From NCBI GenBank assembly GCA_963722385.1, contig CAVRKK010000002.1, positions 928,001 to 992,000 on the forward strand: DNA of 64,000 nt. Reading direction: 5' to 3'. The notes beneath the pieces were generated by a model. The model ran no database searches. It was not told where the DNA came from and was given only the letters and a program-made list of their open reading frames with translations. This DNA comes from an uncultured bacterium. GTDB taxonomy: Bacteria > Babelota > Babeliae > Babelales > Babelaceae. Positions 14,768-59,189 of this stretch are shown piece after piece. Each line of letters begins with the position of its first letter. Within the stretch, counting starts at the first letter, position 1. Position numbers and translations under genes: made by a program.

Positions 14768-16390
14768 ATGAAGCGCATGACGTGGTATATTGGGCTTATA
14801 GCGATTAATATTGTTGGTTGTGTTGTCGGGGCTCGCCCCATGGATGATAAGTGGCAAGCTGCTGAACAGTTTGTTGAGGAAGCGGCAAACTTTTTTGCAC
14901 GAAACTCCGCACACACTGCCTGTACCGACTTTACTCATAACCCACAGTGGCGGTTTCCAAGCTCGAGGCTTGTTGTTATCGATGAAAAAGGGCTTATTTG
15001 GTTTTTAATGGATAAGCCTGTCCATCTATGGACGCCATTGGCCGATCTAAAAACCGAACGGAATGTGCCTTTGACACATGATATGCGTTTACAAGGCCAA
15101 AAAGGAGGCTGGGTTGCTTTTATTTGGGATCAAGCGTTGGTTAGAGCATACGTAAAAAATGTTCATAAAGCTGATCAGCTTTTTACGATTGGTCTGCTTG
15201 TTTTTAGTGAAAATCCGCGTGATCAGATTCAAGAGCAAGTATTGGCAGCTTACTCTTATCTTCGTGATCACGGCATTAAGCGAACTGCCGAGGAAATTAA
15301 CAACCCTAATGGACGATTTTTGCATGGTTCTCTCTCTGTGGCATTATATGATCAAGATGGCATCTGTTTGGCAGATTCTTTTGATTGGACGCATATTAAC
15401 CAAAGAAGCACGAATTGGCTTGATGACAGTGGTCAATCGGTTTTTTCTCAATTTGTAGCTGCGGCACAGCATTCGCCGAGCGGGAACGGTTGGGTAAAAT
15501 ATACGTTTCAGGGGATGATTGAGCATGCTTTTGTTAAATATGTACCGCACCGAAATCCTAAAAAGTTTTATATCCTCGCATCAGGGTATTACCCAGCAGT
15601 CGATGAGAAATTTGTGGTCAATTTTGCGCAACAGGCGAGCGACTATATCAAGCAATATGGTATACATAAGGCACTTGCCGACTTTGCAGAACAGAGAACG
15701 ACTTTTTATAAAGCCCGATTAGCGCTTGTTATTTACGACGAAAAGGGCATAGTAAAGGCACAAACGAGATTTCCTTCGCTCATAGGGGTTAATGCTTATA
15801 ATTTACGTGATCAAGCAGGTTATCCTATTACGCAATTGATTTTAAAAAAGGGACTTGAAGAGGGGCACGGGTCGGTTTTCCAATATGTTGCCAATGCCGC
15901 TGAGCCTGTTTACTGCCAAAAATTGGTTGTGCCCGAAGGGGTTTTTGTTATCACGGTGCAAGGCTTTACGCCACTGCACAAGATGACCCTTGCGGCAGGT
16001 ATTGCTGAATGGCTAAGCTACCGGTTAGCAAATCAGCCAGCAAGAATTATCATGAACGCACTAAATCAAGGTGATGTGGTAGGGAATATAGGATTTAGGG
16101 CTTCAGGCGCTCGCCGAGTTTATACTGATTTTGTTATCGAAATTTACGATGGTCAAGGTTTCTGTCTCTCAGCAGGTTCCAATTATTACCTAATATGGCA
16201 AGCTATTGATCGCGGTATGAAACTAAGTGTTGAGAAAATGAAAAGGGCTGGTGCGAGCTCAGGGTCTTTTCATGATGTTCACCAGGGCATAGGTCGTGAC
16301 TATTATTTAAAGGAATGTGTTAAAAGTGCACGAGAAAAGTATTATATTTTTGTTGGCTACCATACGCTCCGCAAGGGAGCCGAGGAATGA
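14768..16390 (+). CDS. Secreted protein with four tandem Cache (sCache_2-like) domains, paralog 1
   Basis: Signal peptide then four ~125-aa units (helix A..Y/F...G, hhhD..G, D..G, GWV.Y, GYYP); no further TM or output domain. Confidence 0.8.
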   Translation: MKRMTWYIGLIAINIVGCVVGARPMDDKWQAAEQFVEEAANFFARNSAHTACTDFTHNPQWRFPSSRLVVIDEKGLIWFLMDKPVHLWTPLADLKTERNVPLTHDMRLQGQKGGWVAFIWDQALVRAYVKNVHKADQLFTIGLLVFSENPRDQIQEQVLAAYSYLRDHGIKRTAEEINNPNGRFLHGSLSVALYDQDGICLADSFDWTHINQRSTNWLDDSGQSVFSQFVAAAQHSPSGNGWVKYTFQGMIEHAFVKYVPHRNPKKFYILASGYYPAVDEKFVVNFAQQASDYIKQYGIHKALADFAEQRTTFYKARLALVIYDEKGIVKAQTRFPSLIGVNAYNLRDQAGYPITQLILKKGLEEGHGSVFQYVANAAEPVYCQKLVVPEGVFVITVQGFTPLHKMTLAAGIAEWLSYRLANQPARIIMNALNQGDVVGNIGFRASGARRVYTDFVIEIYDGQGFCLSAGSNYYLIWQAIDRGMKLSVEKMKRAGASSGSFHDVHQGIGRDYYLKECVKSAREKYYIFVGYHTLRKGAEE

Positions 16391-16394
16391 TACG

Positions 16395-17969
16395 GTGCGC
16401 AAAAAAATTATAGGCTCCATGCTCATCGTACTACTGAATGTATCTCTATCGACAATGGGGGCTGTGCCCCGCGTGGTCGATTTAAAAATAAAAGCAGAAA
16501 AGCTGCTTGCTCAAGCGATTTCTTTTATTAGAAAAGAGGGTGCTGATAAAGCGTGTGCCGCATTTGCCTCTCAAGAGCAGTGGCGGTATGGTCCGATAAC
16601 TCTTCTTGTTTTAGATGCTAACGGAAGAATACTCCTTGACGAGCATCAGACGATTTTAACGTGGCGGCCTTATTCCCGCAAACAAGGTTATGTGAGCTCT
16701 GTGGTAAGCTCGCTGCTTTTCGCCGCAATAAAAGGGGGCTGGGTTGCTCATCGTTTGTTTAATAGTATGCGCCATATCTATGTCAAGTCAGTGACCGTAG
16801 AGGGCAAAACGTACATAATGGGTGCAAGCTTTTTCGATGAGTCACCTGAGCTTATTGCGATAGCGATGGCCAGAAAAATAGAACGGTTATGGCGAAGTGT
16901 CGGTTTTAATAAAGCGATTGAGCTTGTCAATAACCCTTTTGGTCCAGCATCTGTTGGCCAAGTGTACGGTATAGTTTTTGGTACGGCAGGTGTATGTTGG
17001 GCCTTCAGCAATAACAACGTGTTAGTAGGGCAAAACCTATTTGGAGCGCGTACGGTGAGCGCACAAAGTGCCTATAATTTTAAATATATTTTAAACCTTC
17101 TTAAAGCTGAACCACAAAAGAAAATATGGGTTGACGTAAAAGAGAATGAATTGCTCCATCGTTTCTATTGCCAGCTTTTTACTGATGACAAAACAAATAA
17201 AGACTATGTTCTTATAACAGGGTATTATCCAGATATAAATGACCAAACAATCATCAATATAGGCGAACAAGTTGCTACTGATCTTACCGCGGGCGGGCTC
17301 GAAAGAATTAAAACCCTTTCTCGGCAGAAAGACCTCAGGCTTACGCCAGCAAATCTCACTCTTACGGTCACTGATCGGCAAGGTGTGATGCTCTATCATA
17401 GCGCACCAAACCAAGGTACGTGGTTTACGGGCCGAAATATTCTTGATTATGTTGATGATCGAAAGCGGCCCTATAGCCGTATGCTGATGCAAAAGCTACA
17501 GAAAGCTCCGAGTGCATGGATTACCCGTTTTAATAAGCGTACAATTGAGCGTGTGTATGGTCGTAAAATACCTATGCCGAATGGGGACGTATACATATTC
17601 ATCGATGGTTACTTCCCTTCGACCGACGAAGAAGTAACCCGTATTTTGGTTGATGACGCCTATGACTATTTAGCCGAAAATCCTTCTATACAAGCATTTA
17701 ATGCTTTTATGAGTAGAGACTGTTTCTTTATGCAAGGAGAAAAGCAGATATTTGTTTATGACAAAACGGGAGCATGCTGGGTAAAGGGAACAAATTCCGC
17801 TTTTATATGGAGCCAGGATAAACTTATACCAGCACTTGCTGAAGGCTGGGCAGAAGATAAGCGGTCGTCCAATATTAAGAGAATGTATATTCGAAAGTTA
17901 ACAAAGCAGAATACTTCTCAGCAGAAAGAAGAATTTATTATAGGATCGAGCTATTATTTGGTTAAATAG
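16395..17969 (+). CDS. Secreted tetra-Cache protein, paralog 2
   Basis: GTG start after GAGGA (MRKKIIGSMLIV...); same four-unit layout (NNPFG, GYYP, GYFP). Confidence 0.8.
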   Translation: MRKKIIGSMLIVLLNVSLSTMGAVPRVVDLKIKAEKLLAQAISFIRKEGADKACAAFASQEQWRYGPITLLVLDANGRILLDEHQTILTWRPYSRKQGYVSSVVSSLLFAAIKGGWVAHRLFNSMRHIYVKSVTVEGKTYIMGASFFDESPELIAIAMARKIERLWRSVGFNKAIELVNNPFGPASVGQVYGIVFGTAGVCWAFSNNNVLVGQNLFGARTVSAQSAYNFKYILNLLKAEPQKKIWVDVKENELLHRFYCQLFTDDKTNKDYVLITGYYPDINDQTIINIGEQVATDLTAGGLERIKTLSRQKDLRLTPANLTLTVTDRQGVMLYHSAPNQGTWFTGRNILDYVDDRKRPYSRMLMQKLQKAPSAWITRFNKRTIERVYGRKIPMPNGDVYIFIDGYFPSTDEEVTRILVDDAYDYLAENPSIQAFNAFMSRDCFFMQGEKQIFVYDKTGACWVKGTNSAFIWSQDKLIPALAEGWAEDKRSSNIKRMYIRKLTKQNTSQQKEEFIIGSSYYLVK

Positions 17970-17977
17970 GTGGCTAT

Positions 17978-19597
17978 ATGTGGTGTGGTTGGTTTTTTGT
18001 TGCCGCGATCTTACTTGCTCATTCATTCTGTTTGGGCCAAGAAAAAGTAAATATAAAAGAAAAAGAGCGTGCGCTCTATAAGCTCTTGCGGCGCGGTGCT
18101 GCCTATTTTAAGCGACACCCTGTTGGCCAATCATGTCACACTTTTACGTATGATCCTCGCTGGCGGAACGGGGAACTTTTTCTTTTTTTACTTGATAGCG
18201 AAGCGGTGTGTTATGCGTTTGGTGATGAGCGATCGAGGGTCTGGACAAGTTTTGCTCATTACCGAGACCTTCTGGGGACACCGTTGGTGAACAAGTTTTT
18301 TCAAAAAGGGAAAAGCACAAAAATTTCAGTTATGATGAATAATGCCTCAATGCACTGCCGTATTAAAAAAATAAATAAAGAAGGGAAGACGTTTATATTA
18401 GGATGTGGATTTTATCCCGAGGCAAGTGAACAGATCGTAGAAAATCTTGTAGCCCAAGCCATTGAGGTGCTTGAAGAGATTGGTACTCAGAATGGTTTTA
18501 GCGAAATCAGTAACCCATTTGGGCACTTGGTGCATGGCGATAGTTGTGTGTTCGTTATTGGCGAAGATGGCATGGTTTACGCGCAGAGTGATAACATAGC
18601 GCAAATGGGAAAAAATATTTTTAATCCACCTTTGGATCCCCCGGGCTCGCTAGCTTATCAGGATAAAGCGGCATATAGGCATGTTTTGGTAAGCTTTTTA
18701 AGAAGCAATGAACAAAGAGCTTGGCTGCCACCTATTATGGTTAATAATACAACTAAGCGCATTTTTGTTGCCAAGTATCGGGATCCCAAAACGCGCAAGC
18801 GGTTTATTGTCGGTTCATTTTATTATCCTGAGCTGAATGATGAAGCTATTTATGAATTAGTGCAAAAAGCTATTACGTACCTTAAAGCCCAAGGGCGGCG
18901 TGCTGCCTTTGAGACATTTAATACGCCAGAAGGTCCTCTGGCACTAGGTAGTGGTAGAATTATAGTTTTAAATTTTGACGGTGCTTGTTTAGTTGATGCA
19001 ACACCAGCGAATTTAGCTGGTTCTTATTTGATAGATCGCGCTGATGTGCAAGGGCATTACCCCTATCGTAGGATCCTTGAGGGTATACAGCGTTATGGGC
19101 GCAGCTGGATTAGCCAGTATCTTAAAAATGCTTATCAGCTCATGTATGCTGAGAAAGTTGATCTTCCTGACGGCTCACTGATCATTGCTGCTGGTTATTG
19201 GCCTGACTCTAAAGCGCTGACCGTGAGGTCGATGGTCGACCGTGCCGCTAATTTTTTGGAGCGGAATGGCGAAAGTGCTGCCTTAAGAAAGTTTACCACG
19301 CATGATTCAGATTTTGTGCGTGGCGATGTCAATATTATGGCGCTTGATCCCACAGGAATTATTTTAAGTGATGGGCCTTTTCGCAAATATCGGATCTGGT
19401 CCGATGTTGCTTTGCGTGATCGATTTGGTAGGCATGTTATTAATAAAATTCTTGAAACAGCCGCGCAGGGAGGAGGATGGGTAGGCTATCGCAAATTTAA
19501 TGCTGACTACCGTGCATATACTCGCCAGATTGATATACCAGGAAGCACTAATACCAAAGATAATAGCATGGTGCTTGTCGCAGGGTATTATCTTTAA
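17978..19597 (+). CDS. Secreted tetra-Cache protein, paralog 3
   Basis: Signal peptide; units end GCGFYP, GSFYYP, AAGYWP, VAGYYL. Confidence 0.82.
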   Translation: MWCGWFFVAAILLAHSFCLGQEKVNIKEKERALYKLLRRGAAYFKRHPVGQSCHTFTYDPRWRNGELFLFLLDSEAVCYAFGDERSRVWTSFAHYRDLLGTPLVNKFFQKGKSTKISVMMNNASMHCRIKKINKEGKTFILGCGFYPEASEQIVENLVAQAIEVLEEIGTQNGFSEISNPFGHLVHGDSCVFVIGEDGMVYAQSDNIAQMGKNIFNPPLDPPGSLAYQDKAAYRHVLVSFLRSNEQRAWLPPIMVNNTTKRIFVAKYRDPKTRKRFIVGSFYYPELNDEAIYELVQKAITYLKAQGRRAAFETFNTPEGPLALGSGRIIVLNFDGACLVDATPANLAGSYLIDRADVQGHYPYRRILEGIQRYGRSWISQYLKNAYQLMYAEKVDLPDGSLIIAAGYWPDSKALTVRSMVDRAANFLERNGESAALRKFTTHDSDFVRGDVNIMALDPTGIILSDGPFRKYRIWSDVALRDRFGRHVINKILETAAQGGGWVGYRKFNADYRAYTRQIDIPGSTNTKDNSMVLVAGYYL

Positions 19598-39776: not shown

Positions 39777-40682
39777 TTAAAAATACCAGCCGAGCAGCCC
39801 AAACCAGGTGAACTCTTGTGCTACACTATTGAACGATCCTATGAATCCTGTCTCAAGAGATAAAGCTCGTTGTGCATTATAATATGAATAGGTGGCATAG
39901 AGGGAGGTGTAATTTTCTGCTGGTATTTTGGTGCGCTGATCGAGAGACTTGAATAACTGACGGGTTATAAAGGTGGGATTATAGCCACATTCAAAATGAT
40001 GGCCATAAGAACGGTAATGAAGGAGTAAAAGAACATCAAGTACATTTCCTGGGTCATAAAATACTTGAGTAGTCTTGTCTTTGCGCGCAAATCCATGAAG
40101 CCAACGAGTGATAAAGCCACAAAAGAAGTCTGCTTCTTTCGACCTAATAAAATCATAGGCGAATTCTATGACAGGGCCAGCATGCAGTGTTCGGGTTCCC
40201 AGAAGAATTTGTTCGTCATGGGCGAGCTCCAAAAAAGTGGGGATACCAATCAGACCATGAATAAGAAGCTGGGCTTTCCCTTTTTTATCAAGCAGGAAAT
40301 TGTAGCCACCATCTATAAGAAAATCATCAAACCCAGAACGGGACTTTTTGACATGCTGCTTCCCTTGTTTAAGATGAAGACTTTCTTTGCCAGCGCCAGC
40401 GATAAATTCTACCCAGAGATGTTTATGGGTAAGCCTCAGGGAGCCAATCGAGCCCGCAAAGAAACGGTTTTCAAATCCTCCGGGCAGCCGCTTGTTAAAA
40501 GTGGTAATAATAGGCGATATCGAAACTTTGTCCGGAAAGCCGGGCGGCTCGGCATAATACTCATTGTGAAGATAAAGCTCATAAAGATAGGTGTCTGATA
40601 TGGCTTGACAGGCGAGGTTGAACCCTAGTATAAGCAAGCTTCCGCTGAGGTTTCGGTACAAATTTTTATTTTTTGTGTGCAT
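39777..40682 (-). CDS. Putative outer-membrane beta-barrel protein, family member 1
   Basis: Signal peptide, amphipathic strands, ends GWYF; shares motifs with 48293-49183 and 57531-59189. Confidence 0.6.
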   Translation of the reverse strand: MHTKNKNLYRNLSGSLLILGFNLACQAISDTYLYELYLHNEYYAEPPGFPDKVSISPIITTFNKRLPGGFENRFFAGSIGSLRLTHKHLWVEFIAGAGKESLHLKQGKQHVKKSRSGFDDFLIDGGYNFLLDKKGKAQLLIHGLIGIPTFLELAHDEQILLGTRTLHAGPVIEFAYDFIRSKEADFFCGFITRWLHGFARKDKTTQVFYDPGNVLDVLLLLHYRSYGHHFECGYNPTFITRQLFKSLDQRTKIPAENYTSLYATYSYYNAQRALSLETGFIGSFNSVAQEFTWFGLLGWYF

Positions 40683-40892
40683 TATTGTATCTATTACCTG
40701 AAAGAGATAATTAATATTGTACCATAGCAAAAAAAATCAGGCAGCGATATAAAATTTTGCTTTGTTAGCTTAGCAAACGATTGGAGGCTTACGGGTCAAT
40801 TTATAGCTGATGCTCCATCTGGACGAGCACTTACGTAAAAAAGAATTATTTTGTAAACTATAATTAGTTACTTTTTTAAACTGACTTTATTA

Positions 40893-43879: not shown

Positions 43880-44555
43880 TGCTTCGGTTTTGCTTTACAT
43901 AAAAAGCCTTTTTGTTATAATTATTATTAGTGAAAATTTTCTTGTGTATATATTAAAAATTATGTGTTCTTTGAAATATCTATAGTGTAATAGTCTAAAG
44001 CGACAATTTACTGAGATCTCGAAATTTGATAAGTTTAGTGGTTAATTGAAAAGGGCTTCCGGTGGATGCCTTGGCACCAAGAGACGATGAAGGAGGCGGA
44101 AGACTGCCATAAGCTTCGGGGAGCTGTCAAACAAGCTGTGATCCGAAGATGTCCGAATAGGGAAACCGATTACGATCAAATCGTAGTACTCGTATCTGAA
44201 TATATAGGGTACGAGGGTGAACGGCGTGAACTGAAACATCTAAGTAGCGCTAGGAAAAGAAAACAAAGTGATTCCCTGTGTAGTGGTGAGCGAAAGGGGA
44301 AGAGCCTAAACTCCTGTTATGTGATAACCTGTGTGTGTTGTAGCAGGGGGGTAGTGGGATGATAATGTCTGAAGAACACAGTCTTCAGCATACGGATACT
44401 TACCTTAGTCGAATGTTTTGAAAAGGACAGTCAAAGAAGGTGAAAGCCCTGTAGGCGAAAAGCTAAGTATCATATGAGTTTTTATTCCCAAGTACCGCAG
44501 AGCACGTGAAATTCTGCGGGAATCTGCCCGGACCATCGGGTAAGGCTAAATACTC

Positions 44556-44607
<52 letters not shown>

Positions 44608-45200
44608 GGGAGGGGAGTGAAATAGAATCTGAAACCGGTCGTCTACAATCGGTGGAAGCGCTGTATAAGAACGCGCAACCACGTACCTTTTGCATAATGA
44701 GCCAACGAGTTATCTTATGTTGCAAGGTTAAGCTTTGAAAGAGTGGAGCCGCAGCGAAAGCGAGTCCGAATAGGGCGATTAGTAGCATGAGATAGACCCG
44801 AAACCTAGCGAGCTACCCATGTCCAGGGTGAAATCTCAGTTAGATGAGATGGAGGCCCGAACCGGTGTAGGTTGAAGACTGCTCGGATGAGGTGTGGGTA
44901 GGAGTGAAAGGCTAATCAAGCTGGGAGATAGCTGGTTCTTCCCGAAATATATTGAGGTATAGCCTCGTCGGATGAATTGTGGAGGTAAAGCACAGTTGAA
45001 GTTTTGGGGGCGCAAGCTTACCGGATTTTTACTAACTCTGAATGCCGCAATTTTAGAAGACGGGAGTCGGACTGTGGGGGATAAGCTTCATAGTCGAGAG
45101 GGAAACAGCCCAGACCATCAGCTAAGGTCCCTAAATGCTCGTTAAGTGTGAAAAGAGGTGGCAGTACATAGACAGCCAGGAGGTGGGCTTAGAAGCAGCC

Positions 45201-45237
<37 letters not shown>

Positions 45238-46034
45238 TTTGCTGCGCTGAAATACAAACGGGGCTAAACGAGCTACCGAAGCTATGGCTTGTAGTGTACT
45301 GCGGTATGCTACAGGGGTAGGGAAGCGTTCTCTAGCAGATACAAGCTCGACTGGAAAGACGAGTAATGGGCTAGAGAAGTGAATATGTTGGTATAAGTAA
45401 CGATAAATAGGTGAAATTCCTATTCGCCGTAAGTCTAAGGTTTCCGTGAGATAGGATCATCCACTCAGGGTTAGTCGATACCTAAGCCGAGGCCAATTGG
45501 AGTAGGCGATGGACAACAGGTTAATATTCCTGTACCACCTTTAAGCGTTTGAGCGAAGAGGGGACGCAGCAGGGTAGGCTGACTTGGCTTATGGATTGCC
45601 AAGTTAAGCACCTAGGGAGATTTGGTAGGTAAATCCGCCAGATCATAGATCCTAAAGTGTGATGAGTATGCTAAATCCTCGTGGTTTTGTGTATTCAGCT
45701 GATCCCATACTGCCTAGAAAAGCCTCTAGTGAGCTTGAAGGTGATCGTACCGCAAACCGACACAGGTAGACGGGCTGAGAATGCTCAGGCGTTGAGATAA
45801 CCACCACTAAGGAACTCGGCAAATTGGCCTCGTAACTTCGGGAGAAGAGGTGCCTGCGATGTGATTTGTGTAATCAGCAAAGAAGCATTGTCAGGTTTCA
45901 ACAAAGAGGCCCAACCGACTGTTTATCAAAAACACAGGGCTCTGCAAACTCGTAAGAGGAAGTATAGAGTCTGACGCCTGCCCAGTGCCGGAAGGTTAAT
46001 AGGAGATGTCAGCTTAAAAGCGAAGCATTGAATT

Positions 46035-46070
<36 letters not shown>

Positions 46071-46334
46071 AACTATTGCTACCAGTAGAGGCCGTTGTAA
46101 AATTTGGCTATATGCTGGAAACTCTCATGTATCCTACACTACTTGCCTATGGGTAAGTGACAATGTGCTAGGTGGAGACAATCAGCAGGAAAGGCCTTGG
46201 CTTAAAAAGCTAAGGAATCCTCAGAGACTATACGCCAAACTCAATTGATAAATTGAGAAGATAGAGTCCGATCTCTATGGCGACATAGAGCGCAAGTAAT
46301 TGCGGCTTTCTCATGTGAGAAAGAAACATAAATA
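46071..46334 (+). ncRNA. Group I intron (IB-like, ORF-less, 264 nt) at 23S position 1923
   Basis: Splits ATAACGGT/CCTAAGG. IGS GCCGTTGT pairs with the 5' exon; core P ATGCTGGAA, Q AATCAGCAGG, R TCAGAGACTA, S GATAGAGTCC. Last base is A. Confidence 0.92.
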
Positions 46335-46362
46335 CCTAAGGTAGCGAAGTCCCTTGTCGGGT

Positions 46363-47076
46363 AAGAGAATCTTGCCCCTTTATCTCGTGAGAGATATTGA
46401 AACACCAGCTCATATCGGGGGAACCCTCCTGAATCTTTATTCAAAGGGCAATCCCGAGGGAAGTCTACCGAAGTATTCGGTATGACCCCGTAACGACTGA
46501 TCCGAAAGGAGAGGCACACGTGTGCGTGTGCAACACGCTGGTTACTTGCCTTAGAAAGAGGGCCTATGGAGATATATAAAGTGCTTAATCCGTGGTTTAT
46601 AACAGGGTTGACTGATGGAGAAGGTTGTTTTTCGGTTTCGTTTACGCTGCGTAAGCGTGTGAAGCTTGGTATAGAAACTCGTCCTTCTTTTTCGATATCG
46701 CTTAATTGTAGAGATCTTAGTTTGATTAAAGCAGTGCATAATTATTTTCAATGTGGCAGTGTACGTTATTGTCAATCTGATAGAACATATAAGTTTGAAA
46801 CTCGTTCTATCTCTGATTTGGTTAAATGTATCATACCTCATTTTGAAAGCTATCCTCTGCAATCAAGTAAAGCTAATGATTTTGAGCAATTTAAGAAGAT
46901 ATGTACCTATGTACATGCCAACCTTCATTTAAGTAGATCGTATCTACAAGAAATCATAGAAATTGCATGTCTTATGAATCCTTCTGGAAAACGGAAGTAT
47001 AGTAAGGATGATCTTCTAAGGGTACTTTGCAAGTAAAAGGTATAGTCTACTTCTTATAGAAATATGAGGTAAAGTG
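46363..47076 (+). ncRNA. Group I intron (IA3-like, 714 nt) at 23S position 1951 with homing endonuclease
   Basis: Splits TGTCGGGT/AAGTTCCGACC. IGS CTTGCCC, R GTAACGACTG, S GGTATAGTCT, terminal G at 47076. Confidence 0.92.
46566..47036 (+). CDS. Single-motif LAGLIDADG homing endonuclease
   Basis: WFITGLTDGEGCFSV, IIPHFESYPLQSSKANDF, MNPSGKRKY; lies inside the L1951 intron. Confidence 0.95.
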   Translation: MEIYKVLNPWFITGLTDGEGCFSVSFTLRKRVKLGIETRPSFSISLNCRDLSLIKAVHNYFQCGSVRYCQSDRTYKFETRSISDLVKCIIPHFESYPLQSSKANDFEQFKKICTYVHANLHLSRSYLQEIIEIACLMNPSGKRKYSKDDLLRVLCK

Positions 47077-47545
47077 AAGTTCCGACCTGCATGAATGGCG
47101 TAACGAGTTGGGCGCTGTCTTGGTGGTGGACTCAGTGAATTTGTAGTACCGGTGAAAATGCCGGTTACCCGCGACTGGACGGAAAGACCCCGTGCACCTT
47201 TACTGCAACTTGACATTGATTTTCGGATAGCTTTGTGTAGGATAGGCGGGAGACTGTGAAGCCAAGGCGCCAGCTTTGGTGGAGTCAATCTTGAAATACT
47301 GCCCTTATCTGTTTGAAAATCTAACTTCGACCCGTAATCCGGGCGGAAGACAATGTCTGGTGGGCAGTTTGACTGGGGTGGTCGCCTCCTAAAATGTAAC
47401 GGAGGCGTTCAAAGGTTCCCTCAAAGCGAATAGAAATCGCTGGGTGAGTGTAAACGCAGAAGGGAGCTTAACTGCGAGGCAAACAAGCCGAGCAGATGCG
47501 AAAGCAGGAGTTAGTGATCCAGTGGTTCCGTATGGAAGGGCCATT

Positions 47546-47582
<37 letters not shown>

Positions 47583-47859
47583 TATCTCCTCTGAGAGTCC
47601 ACATCGACGAGGAGGATTGGCACCTCGATGTCGGATCATCGCATCCTGGGGCCGGAGAAGGTCCCAAGGGTCTGGCTGTTCGCCAGTTAAAGCGGTACGT
47701 GATCTGGGTTCAGAACGTCGTAAGACAGTTCGGTCCTTATCCGTCGTGGGCGTAGGGTATTTGAGGAAGGCTGTTCCTAGTACGAGAGGACCGGAATGGG
47801 TGAGCCTCTAGTGTTCCAGTTGTTTACCAAAAGCAGGCTGGGTAGCTAAGCTCATAAGA

Positions 47860-47890
<31 letters not shown>

Positions 47891-48112
47891 TTGTTCCAAG
47901 ATTAGATACCCCTGTTCTCGAGCAATCGAGAAACTAAGGTCCGTTGAAGACTACAACGTTGATAGGCTGGATGTGTAAGCATAGCAATGTGTTTAGCTAA
48001 CCAGTACTAATAGACCGAACGTTTTAATCACTGATATTAATTTATCAGAGAAAAGTTTAAAGCTTTCGAGTATTACACTATAGATATGAACACGTAATGA
48101 TTTTGAAAGATT

Positions 48113-48267: not shown

Positions 48268-48292
48268 TTGTTTAATTAGATTTGTGCTGTGT

Positions 48293-49183
48293 ATGAAATA
48301 TAGAATTTATATATGCTGGCTTGTTTTTTGTGTGCTTATCTCTCAAAAAGTAGCCGCTCTATCAATCGTATATAACTTTCGTATTGCACAGATTACGAAA
48401 CAATCTCTTGTCGAAGAAACTGGTAGACATAATACCCTGGTATCGCTTCTTTTTAGTCAATTTCGAGAAAGGCATGACCGCTCTCGTTTAAACTATGTAG
48501 GAACCTTTGGCTCGTATATTTACGGATTTGATTCATATTATTGCCGAGCTGACTTTGCGGTAGCGGGCTTTGAAGAGCGTAGAAACCACCGAACTACTTT
48601 TTCTGATATAGAAACCGATGATATTCTTTTTACGGTCGGGCGCAATTTTAGAATAGATAAACAAAGAAATATAACGTTTTCTGCGCTATTCGGCATACCA
48701 ACCCATAAAATATTTAGGCTACAGCATCCTGAGTTTGGACATGGTCAAATAGGTACTGGCCTGCAATTGGATGGCTTCTATGGCCTCAAGCCAAGTAGCG
48801 GTTTTTTGTATGGACTACGATATCTTTCTTTTGTACCACGAGAGGCGCTCGATAAGACTGGTGGAAAACATCTTGTTACTCTTGGTAATGTTGGCGATGT
48901 GCTGGTAGCTTATAGGCACAATTGGCAACAATATGGTATAGAATTTGGTTATACCCACAGGTCTCGGTTTGGAGAAACTATTTCCCCCCCGCTTGATGAC
49001 AAGGGCAAGCCGGCTAATGCCCAGAGAAGCAATTTTTATCTCGTAGGTAAGTATAAGTTTATGCGGGAGAATGTTGAGCACCGATTGTTATGCAATATTT
49101 CTTATGGTTTTGATCATAGACCTGCCCTGCATGGTAATAAATATGTTGTTGGCTTCTGGACGTCATGGAACATAAGTTTCTGA
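48293..49183 (+). CDS. Putative outer-membrane beta-barrel protein, family member 2
   Basis: Signal peptide; DDILFTVGRNF, LFGIPT, GNVGDVL..GIEFGY; ends WNISF. Confidence 0.6.
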   Translation: MKYRIYICWLVFCVLISQKVAALSIVYNFRIAQITKQSLVEETGRHNTLVSLLFSQFRERHDRSRLNYVGTFGSYIYGFDSYYCRADFAVAGFEERRNHRTTFSDIETDDILFTVGRNFRIDKQRNITFSALFGIPTHKIFRLQHPEFGHGQIGTGLQLDGFYGLKPSSGFLYGLRYLSFVPREALDKTGGKHLVTLGNVGDVLVAYRHNWQQYGIEFGYTHRSRFGETISPPLDDKGKPANAQRSNFYLVGKYKFMRENVEHRLLCNISYGFDHRPALHGNKYVVGFWTSWNISF

Positions 49184-49248: not shown

Positions 49249-51663
49249 TTAGGGCCCTTTCGCTTTGAGGTTCCAAAGAAAGAGGAACCATTCAAGACGG
49301 GATAGTTGAAGAACGGGAGGGTGCGGTTCTAACCAGGATTGTAGCGGATTGGAAGCACCTAATTCTTTCAAATTACTTATTAAGGTCACTATGCTAGAAA
49401 AGGTCACTGGGCTAGAAGTTGTATCCCCAAGATTTTCCCAGTAATTAAGCCCAGTAAGTCCACCATTGCTCTTGTTGTTAATATAAAAAGCTATTAATCC
49501 TAGCACTGACCCTACCGTCACTGAAGGTATGATCCATTTTAAGGAAGCCAAAAGCTGATCACGGACGGTCTTGTTGTTAGGTGAATTCTGCAAGGCTTTA
49601 TTAAGTTGACGTAAGACTGCTTGCTGATTTAATAAATTATCCCGAGTATCTGTATCGTTATTTCTCGCGGGGGCATTAATGATAGAAGTATTTGCTGCGA
49701 GATCACTAAGCCTATTTGGTTCGTGTTGCTCTTGTATGGTTCCCTGCTGCAGAGCTTGCTCATGAATACCGGGTATTTGAGTGTTTGGTGTTACTGATAG
49801 ATCAAGCTGGTGAACCGGAGGCTGCTTGTCTTCAGTCTCTTCGTTATTAACGATAGGTGTATCAGAGCTTGAGGCTTCAGCGGTATCATGCTCCTGAAAA
49901 TTGCCAATAGATTCGGTAAGCCATGTAATAATATAATCATGACCATTGCGGTGAGCTACGGTGGTAGCCGTTTGACCATCAGTAGTTTGGGCACTAATAT
50001 CTGCTCCATGGGCGACAAGCCACCGAATGGCACTCAATTGTCCTGCGTGAGCAGCCCAATGTGTCGGCTGTCGGCTATCATTATCTGGGGAATCAATATG
50101 AGCACCGAGCTCGACAAGCAGCTGTAGTATAAGCAGATTGCCTCCTGCTGCAGCATAATGTATGGGCTCAATTCCTCGGTTTGTTCGAGCATTAATTGAG
50201 GCTCCCCGTTGAATGAGCAATTGTACGATGAAGAGATTTCCAGCTCGCGATGCCAAGAGGAGAGGCTCAATGTCACCGTGAGCGCGGGCACGGATGTTTG
50301 CGCCCCATGCTACAAGCAGCTCCACCAGCTTGAGGCTCCCCCCGCGAGCAGCCCAGTGGATAGCCTGTTGGCCATATTCATCAGATGCGTGAATATCTGC
50401 GCCGTTCTCGAGTAACCATTGTGCAATTTCTAAAAAGCCATAATGCGCCGCTATATGTAATGGCTGTGCCCCTTCAGCACCGCGTGCATGTATGGAAGCC
50501 CCATGTTCGGCGAGCCATTGAATAGTTTCTTGGTGCCCACCATGGGTAGCGCAATGGATCGCCTCGTTGCCAAAAGTATCCGACAAATTGATAGGAATGC
50601 CGTTTCCAATCAACCATTTTAAAATATCCATCCGGCCATTTTTTGCAGCCCATAAAGAGTTTCTTCGGTGATTATCCCGAACAGCGGTACCATCTTCTTG
50701 GGCAATATCTCTTTCTCGTTGAGCATTGCCGAGCGTACTGTTCTCTTGGCTTTTCTCAGCATCGCTCATTTGTGCTTGCTCTTCGATAGATTTTGGAGCG
50801 GCTTGTTTATTTCCATCGCGCGCGTCGAGATGAGCACCCTTTTGGATAAGCCATCTGACAATATGCGCATGCTTCCTAAGGGCAGCAACACGAATGGGTT
50901 GATTATGAGCTCCATCGCGTGCATTGATATCTGCACCGTGCCCAACAAGCCATATAAGCCCACCAAGCAGTCCATTATGACAAACATGATGAATCGACTG
51001 GTTGTCGTGAGTGTCACGATGATTAATATCTGCGCCTTGATTATAGAGTATCTGTGCTTGAGCCAAATCGCTGGCGAGCAGGGTATTGAGGAATTTTTGG
51101 TCAAGCTTTTCTTGAGTTGGTGAACGTGGTGCCTGTTGCTGATTACTGTCTGATAGGTTTAAAGGTTCTCCAGGAGGAGCAACCTGCTCAACGGTTAAAA
51201 AATCTTGGCCAGATAAAATGAGGAATTCAAAATCTTCGGCTAAACCATCTAATGCGACAGTATTCACAAAATTATCTTGGGCGACCGCTCCTGCAGCGGT
51301 CAAAGCTTGAATGATTGCTTGCGACCCACCTCTAGTTGCTAGATCTAGAGGCAGATGCCCAATGCCATCTGCTGTTGGTGCATTTACATCAGCACCAGCT
51401 ACTACAAGAACGTTGACAACCGCAAGATCACCGCGAGTTACGGCATAATGAATGGGCTGCCAACCGCGATCATCTCTGCTTGATAAATCAAGGTTCCCCA
51501 TCAATTTTCGATAATCAAGGTATGTTTTCAAAACGCCAGCGTCGCTGCTTTTTGTATGTTGAAATAACTTATAGCCTTGAGGTTTTGGTGGCTCCATACA
51601 ATAAGCAGGATTTACGGTAAGTAAGGTAGTTGCTAGAATAAGAATTTGAAGAATCTTTAACAT
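49249..51663 (-). CDS. Secreted multi-ankyrin-repeat protein (804 aa)
   Basis: Signal peptide ...AYC-ME; more than 10 G.qPIH.A...G...h..Lh..GADI repeats; hydrophobic segment near the C-terminus. Confidence 0.95.
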   Translation of the reverse strand: MLKILQILILATTLLTVNPAYCMEPPKPQGYKLFQHTKSSDAGVLKTYLDYRKLMGNLDLSSRDDRGWQPIHYAVTRGDLAVVNVLVVAGADVNAPTADGIGHLPLDLATRGGSQAIIQALTAAGAVAQDNFVNTVALDGLAEDFEFLILSGQDFLTVEQVAPPGEPLNLSDSNQQQAPRSPTQEKLDQKFLNTLLASDLAQAQILYNQGADINHRDTHDNQSIHHVCHNGLLGGLIWLVGHGADINARDGAHNQPIRVAALRKHAHIVRWLIQKGAHLDARDGNKQAAPKSIEEQAQMSDAEKSQENSTLGNAQRERDIAQEDGTAVRDNHRRNSLWAAKNGRMDILKWLIGNGIPINLSDTFGNEAIHCATHGGHQETIQWLAEHGASIHARGAEGAQPLHIAAHYGFLEIAQWLLENGADIHASDEYGQQAIHWAARGGSLKLVELLVAWGANIRARAHGDIEPLLLASRAGNLFIVQLLIQRGASINARTNRGIEPIHYAAAGGNLLILQLLVELGAHIDSPDNDSRQPTHWAAHAGQLSAIRWLVAHGADISAQTTDGQTATTVAHRNGHDYIITWLTESIGNFQEHDTAEASSSDTPIVNNEETEDKQPPVHQLDLSVTPNTQIPGIHEQALQQGTIQEQHEPNRLSDLAANTSIINAPARNNDTDTRDNLLNQQAVLRQLNKALQNSPNNKTVRDQLLASLKWIIPSVTVGSVLGLIAFYINNKSNGGLTGLNYWENLGDTTSSPVTFSSIVTLISNLKELGASNPLQSWLEPHPPVLQLSRLEWFLFLWNLKAKGP

Positions 51664-52545: not shown

Positions 52546-53794
52546 CAGGGCCGGCTCACTTAAAAAATTAAAAAACTAAGATATAATGGTTCTCAAAAAA
52601 AACCGGGAGAACCAAGATGGAAGACAGAAATATTAGTTTTTTGGATTATATAGGTGAACTAGAAGACCCAAGAATTGAAAGAGGAAAACTGCATTCAATG
52701 GCAGATATTCTTTTTTTAACTCTGGTAGGGGTTATAAGTGGGTGCGAGGGTTGGAAAGATATCGAATACTACGGAAAAGCTCGATTAGACGTACTTAAAA
52801 AGTATCTACCATTTGAAAATGGGGTACCAAGCGATGATACGTTAAGGAGATTTTTTAGAGCACTTGATCCTAATGAGTTTTCTAAAATATTTGTAAAATG
52901 GGTAAGCGATTTAGTAGCATCAGTAAGGGATAACAGAGACACTGATGATGCAAGAACAGTAGCCATAGATGGGAAAGTGACAAAAAGAAGCTTTGATCAG
53001 GGTGAAACAGAAGATAAAGAGCCTCTTTATCTAGTCAATGCATTTGCGACAGATGTTAGAATGGTCCTTTGTCAAAAAAAGGTAGAAGGAAAATCGAATG
53101 AAATAACGGCTATCCCGCAGCTCTTGGACTTAATTGATATCTGCGGTGCGATAGTGACGATTGATGCAATAGGGACCCAGAAAAAAATTGCTCAAAAGAT
53201 TATTGACAAAAAAGGGGATTATTTGCTTAATGTAAAGGGCAATCAAGGTGATCTTCTTGAAGAAATAAAAACTTTCTTTGAAATAGAAAGCGAATCAAAA
53301 TATATCAATATTAAGCATGATACATTTTCAGAAACAGAAAAAGGGCATGGTCGAATTGAGATTAGGACTTGTACAACAACCGATCAAATAGGCTGGATTT
53401 CTAAAAAGAATGATTGGGTCTCACTAAAGAGCATTGCCTGTATACAATCAGAGCGATTGATTGGTAAGAATAAGACTATAGAAAAACGTTACTACATAAC
53501 AAGTATTCCTGCATCAGCAGAAAGAATATTGCGCGCCGCAAGAAGTCACTGGTTAATAGAGAATTCGATGCATTGGGTACTCGATGTTTGCTTTAATGAT
53601 GATCAATCGAGAATTCGAAAAGGTAATGCTCCTCAAAATGTAGCGACCATCAAAAGTTTGGCGCTTAACTTGCTCAAACGAGCCCAGCCATTGGTTGATA
53701 AGTACATCAGTATCAAATGTCTTCGAAAGCTGTCTTGCTGGCAACCTAGCACTTTGGAATTAATTGTCAATCAAATTTAGATGAGCCGGCCCTG
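52546..53794 (+). mobile_element. ISAs1-family IS, complete (1249 bp) with 10-bp TSD
   Basis: IRL CAGGGCCGGCTCACTTAAA, IRR TTTAGATGAGCCGGCCCTG; ATCAGATAAA duplicated at 52536-52545 and 53795-53804. Confidence 0.97.
52617..53780 (+). CDS. ISAs1-family transposase
   Basis: LEDPR...KLH, GVPSDDT, AIDGK, KSNEITAIP, HWLIENSMHW. Confidence 0.97.
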   Translation: MEDRNISFLDYIGELEDPRIERGKLHSMADILFLTLVGVISGCEGWKDIEYYGKARLDVLKKYLPFENGVPSDDTLRRFFRALDPNEFSKIFVKWVSDLVASVRDNRDTDDARTVAIDGKVTKRSFDQGETEDKEPLYLVNAFATDVRMVLCQKKVEGKSNEITAIPQLLDLIDICGAIVTIDAIGTQKKIAQKIIDKKGDYLLNVKGNQGDLLEEIKTFFEIESESKYINIKHDTFSETEKGHGRIEIRTCTTTDQIGWISKKNDWVSLKSIACIQSERLIGKNKTIEKRYYITSIPASAERILRAARSHWLIENSMHWVLDVCFNDDQSRIRKGNAPQNVATIKSLALNLLKRAQPLVDKYISIKCLRKLSCWQPSTLELIVNQI

Positions 53795-55966
53795 ATCAGA
53801 TAAATTACTTTCTTTAGGTTCATCAGTAATTAAGTTATCATGAGTATTTACATTATTTGCCGCTAATATAACATTAATTGAAGTAGTCTCTGCTTGTTCT
53901 ATGTTTGATTCTTCAAGTTCATCGCCCTCTTTTGGGAGGGCTTCTTTATGAACACTGCGTATTTCAGGCGTGGATGCTCTAGGTAGATCCTGATGGTGAA
54001 TCAGCGATTCTTCCTGCTCGCTTCTGCTTTCTATATCTGCTTGTTCTTCATTAATGACTGGCGTATCAGAACTTGAAGCTGCAGCTCTGTTGTACTCCTG
54101 GAAATTGCCAATAGATTCGGTAAGCCATGTAATAATATAATCATGACCATTGCGGTGAGCTATGCTAGCAGCTGTTTGACCATCAGTAGTTTGTGCGTTA
54201 ATATTTGCTCCATGATCGACAAGCCACCGAATGGCACTTAATTGCTCTGTGTGAGCAGCCCAATGTATTGGCTGTTGGCCATCATTATCTTGAGAATCAA
54301 TATGAGCACCCAGATCGACAAGCAGCTGTAATATAAGCGGATTGCCTCCTTCTGCAGCAAGATGTATGGGCTCAATTCCTCGATTTGTCCGAGCATTAAT
54401 TGAGGCTCCCCGTTCAATGAGCAATTGTACTATGAAGAGATTTCCAGAACGCGATGCCAAGTGGAGAAGCTCAATATCACCATGAGCCCGAGCACGTATC
54501 TTTGCGCCCCATGCCACAAGCAGCTCCACCATCTCGAGGCTCCCTCCGCGAGCAGTCCAGTGGATAACCTGTTGGCCATATTCATCAGGGGCGTGAATAT
54601 CTGCGCCATTCTCAAGTAACCATTTTGCAATTTCTAAAAAGCCATAATGCGCTGCTATATGTAATGGCTGTGCCCCTTCAGCATCGCGTGAATGTATGGA
54701 AGCCCCATGTTCGATGAGCCATTGAATAGTTTCTTGGTGCCCACCATGGGTAGCGCAATGGATCGCCTCGTTGCCAAGAGTATCCGACAAATCGATGGGT
54801 ATGCCATTTTCAATCAACCGTTGTAAAATATCCATCCTACCATGTTTTGCGGCCCATAAAGAGTTTCTTCGGTGATTATCCCGAACCGCGATACCACTTT
54901 CTTGGGCAAAATCTCTTTCTCGTTGAGCATTGCCGAGCGTACTATTCTCTTGGTTTTTCTCGGTATTGCTCATTTGTGCTTGCGCTGCGATAGACTTTAG
55001 AGTGGCTTGTTTATTTTCATCGCGCGCGTCGAGATGAGCACCCTTTTGGATAAGCCATCTGACAATATGAGCATGCTTCCTAAGTGCAGCAACACGAATG
55101 GGTTGATTATGAGCTCCATCGCGTGCATTGATATCTGCACTGTGCTCAACAAGCCATATAAGCGCACCAAGCAGTCCATTATGACAAACATGATGAATCG
55201 GCTGGTTGTTGTGACGTCACGATGATTAATATCTGCGCCTTGGTTACGAAGCATCTGTGCTTGAGCCAAATCATTGACGAGCAACGCATTGAGGAATTTT
55301 TGGTCTAGCTCTTCTTGAGTTGGTGAACTTGATGCCTGCTGCTGATTACTGTCCGATGGGCTTACTAGTTCTCCTCGAGGAGCCTGATCAAGGTGCTCAA
55401 CAGTTAAAAAATCTGGGCCAGATAAAACGAGGAATTCAAAATCTTCAGCTAAACCATCTAATGCGATGGTATTCACAACATTACCTCTTGTATGAGCTTC
55501 TAAAGCAATCTGGGGATGGGCGACCGCTCCTGCAGAGGTCAAAGCTTGAATGATCTCTTGCGACCCTGCTTGTATTGCTAGATCTAAAGGCAGATGCCCA
55601 TTGGCATCTGCTATTGGTGCATTTACGTTAGCACCGGCGGCTATAAGAACATTGATAACCGCAGGATCGCCACGAGTTACAGCATGATGAATGGGCTGCC
55701 AACCTTGATTATCTTTGATAGCTAAATTAAGTTGCCTGATCAATTGTCGGTAATCGAGAAAGTTCTTCAAGGCGGTAACATGGCCACATTTGATGTGTTT
55801 GAACAGCTTATGGCCTTTAGGTTTTGGTGGCTCCATACAATAAGCAGGTGCTATGGTAAGTAAGGTAGTTGCTAGAATAATAATTTGAAGGTTCTTTAAC
55901 ATTCTTGTCTCCGTAAACGGGCATGCTTAAGGTTTGCCGTCAAGCATACCAACGTTTTCTGAGAAA

Positions 55967-57530: not shown

Positions 57531-59189
57531 TTAAAAAGTTTGGGTGAGTGCTACCCAGAAAAGGCCAGCGCCTGGCTCTAAAACGTTAGCGTGAGACCCT
57601 GAAGCGAATGCCTTGGAATAACCGATGTTCAATGATCCTGGAGACTCGCGCAGCGTGAAATCGTACCGATAATAAGCATAGAGTTTATGCTGTACAGCTG
57701 GCTGCTGTAGATGATGAAGCCTTAGTCGCATAGTATGGTCTCGGGGAGAGGTGAGCTCAAAAAGAAAATCTTCCGCTTCATAATGCTGCGCTATATTGAA
57801 CGTAGGATTATAGCCAAATTCAATGTGGTGCTGGTTGTTATCGCCAAGTTGATTATCAAGACCGAGGAGTATATCGATGAAGCTTCCAGGATGTGATGTG
57901 AGGCTGTTATCGGATATAAAGTGCCCATCTTGTTTACGTGAGTTTATTTTAATAGTGTTGTTGAAAAAATGTAACCAGCGCACGTTGGTTATTAAGTCAT
58001 GATTCGTACAATCAGTTTGTTTAAGATTCGTAGATGTATAGCATTCTAGGCCTGCAACCAAATGGGGCAAATCAACGAGAGGCTCTTTTTTCGTCAATTC
58101 TTGTTCTAGCTCTTTTCTAATGCGGTTAAATGAGCCACCAACCAGCCCTCTTAGGGTAAAAGTAACGGGCCCCCATTGTTGGCATCTTCCTACTGCTATC
58201 AAAAAATCTCTAAAATCGAACGAAGAATAGGATAATTTAAGTCGACGGTCCTCAAAGAAATTTACCTGAATGCTTGATAGAAGGCTCATAACATCAATCT
58301 GCCAAGGTCCGAGACCAAGATATGACCGAAAGATAACGCCGGCCTCAAATTTATTGAGCCGTTTACCAAATGCGGTTTGGTTGGCTTGAATAAAGGGGAT
58401 ATAAGAACCAACAAATTGAACCCATTGGTCTTCACGTAGGTTTGGTATCAACGCTTGCTCGAGTCCTAGGTTATAGATAGGTGAATCAATAGTTCGAGAT
58501 AGAATAAAGCAGTCAACGAGGTCCTCAGCGCGTGGCGAATGAAAGCTCGATGATTTTCTCTCAAAGAAATCGTCGCTAAAATCGTCAAAGAAATCATCGT
58601 CTTGAAAAGATTCCGACGATGATTTCTTTTCATCATTCGCTTCGCCGCGGTTCGCATCTGTTTTGGCTGTGTACCAATCCGATGTTTTTTGATTCTCAGA
58701 AGTTTTAGGTGGCTCACAAGAACAATAAAGCTCTTCGAATAGTGAATCTTCGAGACACGTGCCCGGCCATTTGGTAGCAAAACAGGTGCAGGTTTGGTTT
58801 TTAGAAGTGCAGCCATCACGTTTTGCCTGCTCCCTCATCAAGTTTTTAATTTTGTAAATCTGCTCATAAATCTCTTCATAGAGGTCTTTTTGCGAATTCT
58901 CGGAATATTTATTATTGCTATAACTTGTGTACGTAAAATCTTCTTTTTTTGTTTCTTGTTTCACGCGTTGTTGATTTATTTCATCGCACGCATTATTAAT
59001 GTCGAGATAAGCTCTGAGGATTTTACCGTTGTTCTTGTCGGGGTGGTAGCGACCCCGCAGGGCCCGGCACCGCTTTTCAATTTCTTTAGACGTTGCATGG
59101 CGACCAATGCCTAAAAAGGTATAAGGGTCTGTCATGGTACGAGTATTGAATGTAAAAATGAAGCACAGCAGAAAAAATCTTTTGTTCAT
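57531..59189 (-). CDS. Signal peptide + DnaJ J-domain + putative beta-barrel (family member 3)
   Basis: DPYTFLGI..ATSKEIEKR.RAL..RYHPDKN..INNA; acidic linker; HIEFGYNPTF; ends FWVALTQTF. Confidence 0.75.
   Translation of the reverse strand: MNKRFFLLCFIFTFNTRTMTDPYTFLGIGRHATSKEIEKRCRALRGRYHPDKNNGKILRAYLDINNACDEINQQRVKQETKKEDFTYTSYSNNKYSENSQKDLYEEIYEQIYKIKNLMREQAKRDGCTSKNQTCTCFATKWPGTCLEDSLFEELYCSCEPPKTSENQKTSDWYTAKTDANRGEANDEKKSSSESFQDDDFFDDFSDDFFERKSSSFHSPRAEDLVDCFILSRTIDSPIYNLGLEQALIPNLREDQWVQFVGSYIPFIQANQTAFGKRLNKFEAGVIFRSYLGLGPWQIDVMSLLSSIQVNFFEDRRLKLSYSSFDFRDFLIAVGRCQQWGPVTFTLRGLVGGSFNRIRKELEQELTKKEPLVDLPHLVAGLECYTSTNLKQTDCTNHDLITNVRWLHFFNNTIKINSRKQDGHFISDNSLTSHPGSFIDILLGLDNQLGDNNQHHIEFGYNPTFNIAQHYEAEDFLFELTSPRDHTMRLRLHHLQQPAVQHKLYAYYRYDFTLRESPGSLNIGYSKAFASGSHANVLEPGAGLFWVALTQTF

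Follow-up and report, generated by a model that had tools for sequence, protein, structure and literature searches.

The gene at positions 57531-59189 (minus strand) of the window, by which we mean the whole 64,000-nucleotide stretch of Babelota DNA analyzed here, raises the question of what a J-domain might do on an outer-membrane barrel; to our knowledge, J-domains have no job beyond the bacterial inner membrane, since there is no Hsp70 there. The open reading frame encodes 552 amino acids uninterrupted by stops and runs, from N- to C-terminus, through a hydrophobic leader, a J-domain with an HPD motif, a spacer, a six-cysteine module, an acidic Phe-rich linker, a pore linker and a barrel. 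The original prediction of a signal peptide, an intact-HPD J-domain, a cysteine segment, an acidic linker and a Phe-ending barrel was accurate as a description. Pfam identified a single domain in the protein (DnaJ, PF00226, residues 21-69; E = 1.5e-7, 31.8 bits versus a cut-off of 27.8), and NCBIfam returned just two stray weak matches beyond the J-domain. No description of a J-domain on an outer-membrane barrel was present in the literature searched (listings and abstracts, with subscription journals and most supplements lying outside). DnaJ did not occur in the accessible parts of PMC4776705 and PMC12644861, and the accessible main text of PMC10410713 mentioned no signal peptide, periplasm, outer membrane or barrel. 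The reading that we favor, with a rough probability of 0.5, is autotransporter-like display of a disulfide-stapled J-domain for host Hsp70, on a lineage-specific barrel.

The full architecture was identified in 3/261 Babelota genomes, many of them incomplete: the source genome, a second that shares its genus, and a third from a different genus in the family (32% identity over residues 5-548). A search of a library of 1.84 billion representative proteins revealed 80 matches, 57 of which covered the N-terminal J region only, as judged from match ranges. Among the 25 that were read, nine (query counted) combined a J-domain, Cys module and barrel, three had the Cys module and barrel without a J-domain, seven were barrel only, three were Cys modules alone, one had a J-domain and four Cys modules without a barrel, and the remainder were J-only. 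The nine fusion proteins were ~30% identical overall, with the six cysteines of the module invariant, as were C41, H49, D51 and C68. Mean column identity across the nine was highest in the J-domain (0.44), followed by the Cys module (0.42), pore linker (0.34) and barrel (0.26), and was lowest in the acidic linker (0.13). A word-index homology search with the 552-aa protein, a method that is nearly blind, recovered the query alone; searches of this kind gave five already-known matches with the barrel profile and, among longer proteins, none (weak evidence). A locus search in named genomes gave no match, and promoter and terminator scans around the gene were at chance level.

The identical architecture in two other genomes, together with the nine of 80 library matches, makes an assembly accident unlikely. 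A chance or assembly fusion lacking function would fit the rarity of the gene in the phylum and its neighborhood, which differed across all three genomes. We regard this explanation as very improbable, given that nine full-length homologues, though divergent, keep the motifs invariant; in addition, contigs from a public run, possibly of the source sample, tiled the gene except for a 16-base gap, with zero differences inside the gene and with junctions that no single contig bridged. The fusion is thus real and conserved, and its absence from 258/261 phylum genomes shows that it is accessory.

Elsewhere in the window, a 23S rRNA gene (44040-48031, plus strand) was found to carry both a group I intron (46006-46290) and, at 46566-47036, an ORF for a LAGLIDADG endonuclease. 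Three tandem leader-bearing proteins of 540-550 aa were encoded at 14768-19597 (plus strand), with a Cache match in two and no signalling domain detected. An ankyrin gene (49249-51663) had an apparent split duplicate (54997-55902 and 53777-54973), adjoined by a DDE transposase (52617-53780) that recurred at 2-841.

The C-terminal domain (residues 251-552; 57531..58439, minus strand), for which structure prediction had been proposed as a check, was confidently modelled as a 12-stranded outer-membrane beta-barrel ending in Phe. AlphaFold2 analysis of residues 206-552 with 51 sequences (pLDDT 87.2, pTM 0.85) gave a strand (223-231), an extended stretch, a short helix (241-246) and then twelve strands, most of them with alternating hydrophobicity. 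The C-terminal Phe was present in 45/51 aligned family members, yet in only 4/9 fusions, six of which had an aromatic end. Foldseek with the barrel model ranked EstA first (E = 5e-9) and FapF next. By VIA-align, EstA, EspP, KdgM, AIDA-I, FapF, NalP and a COG4313 channel were tied (Z 20.2-21.4), and fold alone therefore does not single out autotransporters.

Comparison with solved type Va autotransporters (EstA 3kvn, EspP 3slt/2qom, NalP 1uyo, AIDA-I, Hbp and AaaA) gave Z scores of 19.5-21.4 at an rmsd of 3-4 Å. The protein shares with these a probable leader, an N-terminal passenger and a linker predicted to run through a C-terminal 12-stranded barrel, but differs in its passenger of J-domain plus Cys module, in its 5-10% identity to the solved structures and in having no match to PF03797. 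The linker here was modelled as a strand and a short helix where NalP and EstA have a long helix, which, like the tied Z scores, counts against the favored reading. The family's pore Asn was not conserved in the fusions, and there was thus no sign of EspP-type self-cleavage. The autotransporter family PF03797 was absent from all 51 aligned barrel members and from the five genomes searched. PF13557 gave no match in the 552-aa protein or the source genome and weak matches in 2/51 relatives (best E = 0.0014), and profile comparison with a true COG4313 protein from the relative genome G008 gave an hhalign probability of 0.1%. No solved structure matched the barrel by sequence, and its Atlas neighbors, at 0.92-0.95, were barrel clusters of various kinds that pointed to no clear family. 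On sequence criteria, the barrel is a lineage-wide family without a name, neither PF03797 nor PF13557. The protein is best read, from its model, as functioning like a type Va autotransporter from outside the type Va sequence family; the earlier claim of an autotransporter-like surface protein thus stood for barrel and modelled topology, but not for membership of the autotransporter sequence family.

The aligned ranges discriminated where the scores did not. Uncleaved EspP chains aligned from EspP residue 996 at model residues 16-17 (protein residues 221-222; 267-275 residues aligned), whereas cleaved EspP (start 1024) aligned only from model residue 39 (239 residues aligned). NalP aligned from model residue 20-22 and EstA from 7-18; the first residues of COG4313 fell at model residues 35-38, and FapF started at 40. 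The model thereby ran ~20 residues past the FapF and COG4313 plugs, on the autotransporter path. Autotransporter linkers cross the pore to the outside, and these ranges indicate that protein residues ~222-244 follow the same path. They fall within the predicted through-pore linker (residues 223-250; 58440..58523, minus strand; pLDDT 83-96 over 226-255), and because the model places residues 223-244 over the pore-crossing linker seen in uncleaved autotransporters, the J-domain is probably outward-facing, on the outer face of the cell. This topology is taken from the aligned ranges of one predicted model, in which the last 14 modelled residues of the acidic linker had pLDDT <50, and the outer linker strand was present in only 19/51 aligned rows.

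A FapF-like arrangement would instead be a plugged channel whose N-terminus returns to the periplasm, where the J-domain would gate or serve the channel with or without Hsp70. FapF was tied for the best fold (Z 20.2-20.7, the range also seen for the COG4313 protein Pput2725, PF13557), and both resemble the present protein in barrel size and in having an N-terminal plug. The N-terminal domain of FapF stays periplasmic, folding back from the barrel (PMC6173800), and the COG4313 N-terminus stops inside the pore (PMC4493636). The plugged arrangement of these proteins is also resembled by the stand-alone barrel relatives, whose N-termini fall close to residue 237 of the fusion, about where the linker enters the pore, and are plug-like. 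Two barrel-family members weakly matched the COG4313 family, and host ATP must cross the periplasm, translocases being encoded. The ~20 additional residues on the autotransporter path argue against this arrangement, as does the HPD motif, which is conserved yet has no leader-bearing Hsp70 to serve in the source genome or in relative genome G001; we consider it unlikely.

The barrel family profile matched 84/251 phylum genomes, although some of the weakest matches are confined to the last strands of frames of ~500 residues and may represent a different family. The source genome encoded six further members (E < 1e-5), two of them within the window (39777-40730, minus strand; 48284-49183, plus strand) with no Pfam match. 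In a tree of the barrels built by a quick method, a single branch (SH-aLRT 98) set apart the 19 rows that had a longer N-terminus and had been chosen by similarity to the query. Presence of the J-domain required four changes on this tree, at least two of them forced by strong branches, which argues that passengers have been gained and lost; related barrels have Cys modules and no J-domain, or no passenger whatever, in keeping with exchangeable passengers. In G001, a gene for a leader, a double-Cys J-domain and pentapeptide repeats (L023:1972-3783) was followed directly by a stand-alone barrel-family gene (L023:3801-4850), a pair that may represent the fusion split over two genes.

The J-domain (residues 19-72; 58974..59135, minus strand; above the PF00226 cut-off) has three helices, with a basic helix II and helix IV absent in the fusions. 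The HPD motif (residues 49-51; 59037-59045) was kept in 8/9 fusions and read HTD in the remaining homologue. The invariant C41 (59067-59069) and C68 (58986-58988) correspond to positions 25 and 54 in the DnaJ encoded within the window, which has Tyr at both, and lie in helices II and III. Ninety-one J-domains were collected from the phylum genomes examined and the fusions; among the 88 tabulated, both positions were Cys in 12 and neither was in 76 (including three that end before position 54), and no J-domain had Cys at one only. Among the 12 were a J-pentapeptide protein and, from other families, two exported proteins that are unrelated. They formed one clade (SH-aLRT 90 in a quick tree of few columns, Cys columns included), indicating that co-occurrence of the pair reflects a single event, a point against the favored reading. 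As far as these sequences tell, the paired-Cys J-domain has one origin and was kept through domain shuffling. The simplest reading is that C41 and C68 form a disulfide staple between helices II and III, which we consider likely. A second J-domain clade (n = 9) had an N-terminal Cys and a Cys immediately before the HPD. Human, Thermus and E. coli J-domains scored alike (41-47 bits), favoring neither a eukaryotic nor a bacterial origin of the J-domain.

These features also bear on an alternative in which the displayed J-domain serves as an adhesin or decoy for Hsp70 binding that catches host Hsp70 or the host surface during uptake and does not activate its ATPase. The replacement of two core aromatic positions by Cys, the absence of helix IV and the HTD variant are consistent with such a role, and a disulfide would be more at home in oxidising surroundings poor in ATP than in the host cytosol. 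Small Cys-rich surface modules, moreover, are often binding domains. Invariance of the motif His and Asp in 9/9 fusions at ~30% identity, as in catalytic J-domains, speaks against it, and we assign the adhesin or decoy role a low probability.

The J-domain is followed by a variable spacer (residues 73-124; 58818..58973, minus strand; mean identity 0.15), which was almost missing in two homologues and contained extra Cys modules in two others. The cysteine-containing segment of the original prediction proved to be a defined six-cysteine module (residues 125-160; 58710..58817, minus strand; C-x5-C-x-C-x8-C-x10-C-x-C, cysteines spanning 127-158), present in 1-4 copies per protein. It was modelled as a small three-stranded domain (pLDDT 77). 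No match was found in Pfam, in the Atlas or by sequence among solved structures, and a fold search gave nothing significant (best Z 2.6, antifungal protein NFAP2; none at E 0.001). An EGF-like identity, suggested by the spacing, was dropped for lack of a supporting match. The module is mobile, recurring in leader-bearing proteins without J-domain or barrel. At four loci in three other genomes (L163, L175, L176 and L179) it caps or sits inside unrelated leader-bearing proteins, among them an ORF of 95 aa and a Thr/Pro-rich protein of 910 aa.

Whether these cysteines are oxidized bears on the favored reading, against which the usual disulfide oxidase is missing: in five genomes, DsbB, DSBA and Thioredoxin_4 were each found in 0/5, VKOR in 1/5 and DsbD in 5/5. 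Cysteine parity in the source genome was nearly flat among leader-bearing ORFs (162 even versus 146 odd of 373), with 229 even and 252 odd among 586 other ORFs. The module cysteines may bind zinc in place of forming disulfides; disulfides, if formed, may form after display. The source genome, which lacks DsbA and DsbB, also encodes two fusions of thioredoxin reductase to thioredoxin that start with a hydrophobic leader or anchor (C2:517214-518662 and 218785-220224) and a leader-like thioredoxin (L182).

The acidic, Phe-rich linker (residues 161-222; 58524..58709, minus strand), which contains the acidic Phe-rich motif singled out earlier (residues 197-209; 58563-58601), was the least conserved part of the fusions (mean identity 0.13). 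Nothing supported the suggestion that the protein powers protein translocation. Descent of the acidic linker from a DnaJ G/F region is no more than a lead: a motif picked post hoc occurred in 5/9 fusions versus 1.2 expected, but was absent from the 552-aa protein and present in only 2/10 canonical DnaJs.

The N-terminus (residues 1-18; 59136..59189, minus strand) is a probable Sec signal peptide: it begins with basic residues, and its hydropathy over nine residues peaks at 2.79, compared with 0.1-1.2 in nine canonical DnaJs; leader calls here follow a hydropathy heuristic, and the cleavage site of the 552-aa protein is atypical. Leader hydropathy was ≥2.2 in 6/9 fusions as called and weak in one (1.50); in another the leader was restored in a longer gene call of its cluster, and one had no leader as called. 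In five homologues no Met separates leader from J-domain, and the leader must therefore be translated. From these features we infer that the fusion is exported. A BamA gene lies inside the window, and the genome also encodes secretins and a T2SS F protein. An alternative in which the J-domain acts before export only, recruiting the cell's own DnaK to hold the barrel precursor unfolded, agrees with DnaK being the sole Hsp70 encoded. This is a distinctly improbable explanation: at least six stand-alone paralogues in the source genome do without a J-domain, the J-domain directly follows the leader and is hence exported first, and the paired cysteines and soluble leader-bearing J proteins are left unexplained.

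The Hsp70 family was matched in 61/61 genomes searched, as a rule as one DnaK and one MreB-sized weak match; exceptions were a genome with a 736-residue frame and G008, without a full DnaK match. The source genome had one DnaK and one MreB-sized match, without a leader, and no leader-bearing Hsp70 was present in the source genome or G001, the two in which N-termini were read. J-domain matches ranged from 1 to 13 per genome. In a sample picked for richness in J matches, 62 of 78 non-canonical J-domains were in leader-bearing proteins, nine had no leader and seven were cut off. The absence of an exported Hsp70, the constraint on the HPD motif and the frequency of leader-bearing J proteins in relatives make host Hsp70 the likeliest partner, and on these sequence data the most economical reading. 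The earlier argument that the periplasm lacks ATP was weakened by the encoded ATP/ADP translocases, while its companion point, the missing exported Hsp70, is the stronger argument. The original prediction did not include the paired cysteines within the J-domain, the mobility of the six-Cys module or the abundance of leader-bearing J proteins in this lineage.

Three more leader-bearing J proteins were encoded in the source genome (C2:626679-627413 and the regions of C2:1066887 and C1:71346); two had ankyrin matches, and two had the second Cys pattern and no normal helix I. In another genome, three leader-bearing J proteins surround two leader-bearing IBR-domain (RBR ubiquitin-ligase-like) proteins (G186:C2:565000-572800). 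A library protein (P0056) with a leader and a J-domain without the Cys pair raises the possibility that exported J proteins occur outside Babelota. One leader-bearing J protein, from a relative in the same family, is the same in sequence as a protein that a published supplement lists for Babela massiliensis, which would place the lineage in Babeliales (Babelota, formerly Dependentiae/TM6), a group of bacteria living inside protist cells. The DnaJ-domain proteins of B. massiliensis belong to the same lineage and are lineage-specific, four having supplement SignalP scores of 1-3, and none of the supplement rows examined is a barrel fusion; that paper reads them as a chaperone excess, tentatively linked to cell division, and reports type II as the only secretion system (PMC4378268). 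Soluble leader-bearing J proteins could leave by the type II system, and the fusion by its own barrel.

The source genome (1.6 Mb, two contigs) contains many ankyrin genes and ATP/ADP translocases, and its host lifestyle is most likely inside protists. Which host Hsp70 is met depends on location in the cell. B. massiliensis grows in a vacuole (PMC4378268), where a J-domain on the bacterial surface would be kept apart from Hsp70 of the cytosol, a point against the favored reading; Chromulinavorax lies in the cytoplasm, wrapped by a mitochondrion, and sheds outer-membrane vesicles (PMC6561590). Use of host Hsp70 by a bacterial J protein has a counterpart in HopI1 of Pseudomonas syringae, which binds, stimulates and relocalises host Hsp70 via its J-domain (PMC8150971); HopI1 is soluble and type III-injected, whereas the fusion is predicted to be Sec-exported and membrane-anchored. 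Plasmodium falciparum class C J proteins are likewise exported and use host as well as own Hsp70, but belong to a eukaryote and have no beta-barrel anchor; the exported set in Plasmodium numbers 18 of 49 J proteins (PMC10939069).

Taken together, domain order, conservation, the modelled fold and a single DnaK without a leader form the observed basis of the favored reading, to which surface exposure and disulfides are added as inferred elements. The protein would be a monomeric outer-membrane display protein of type Va-like topology on a lineage-specific barrel. Its leader would route it through Sec and BamA would insert the barrel; the linker would thread the pore, leaving the acidic tether, six-Cys module and J-domain outside. 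The J-domain, probably disulfide-stapled between helices II and III, would dock on a protist Hsp70 and trigger its ATPase, so that Hsp70 would be loaded at the bacterial surface on clients nearby or held by the Cys module. The identity of the host Hsp70 (cytosolic, or lumenal BiP-type if the bacterium is in a vacuole) and that of the clients are guesses. More tentatively, and at rather less than even odds, Babelota may have evolved their own autotransporter by extension of a channel plug, displaying a stapled J-domain that tethers host Hsp70 as the anchored member of a phylum-wide Sec-exported J set running host chaperones. Plug-only, Cys-carrying and J-carrying barrels side by side would then record the passage from plugged channel to autotransporter. 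The unexplained excess of DnaJ-domain proteins in Babela would become a testable effector class, and a conserved, surface-anchored J-domain points to direct use of host Hsp70 by widespread, barely studied protist parasites.
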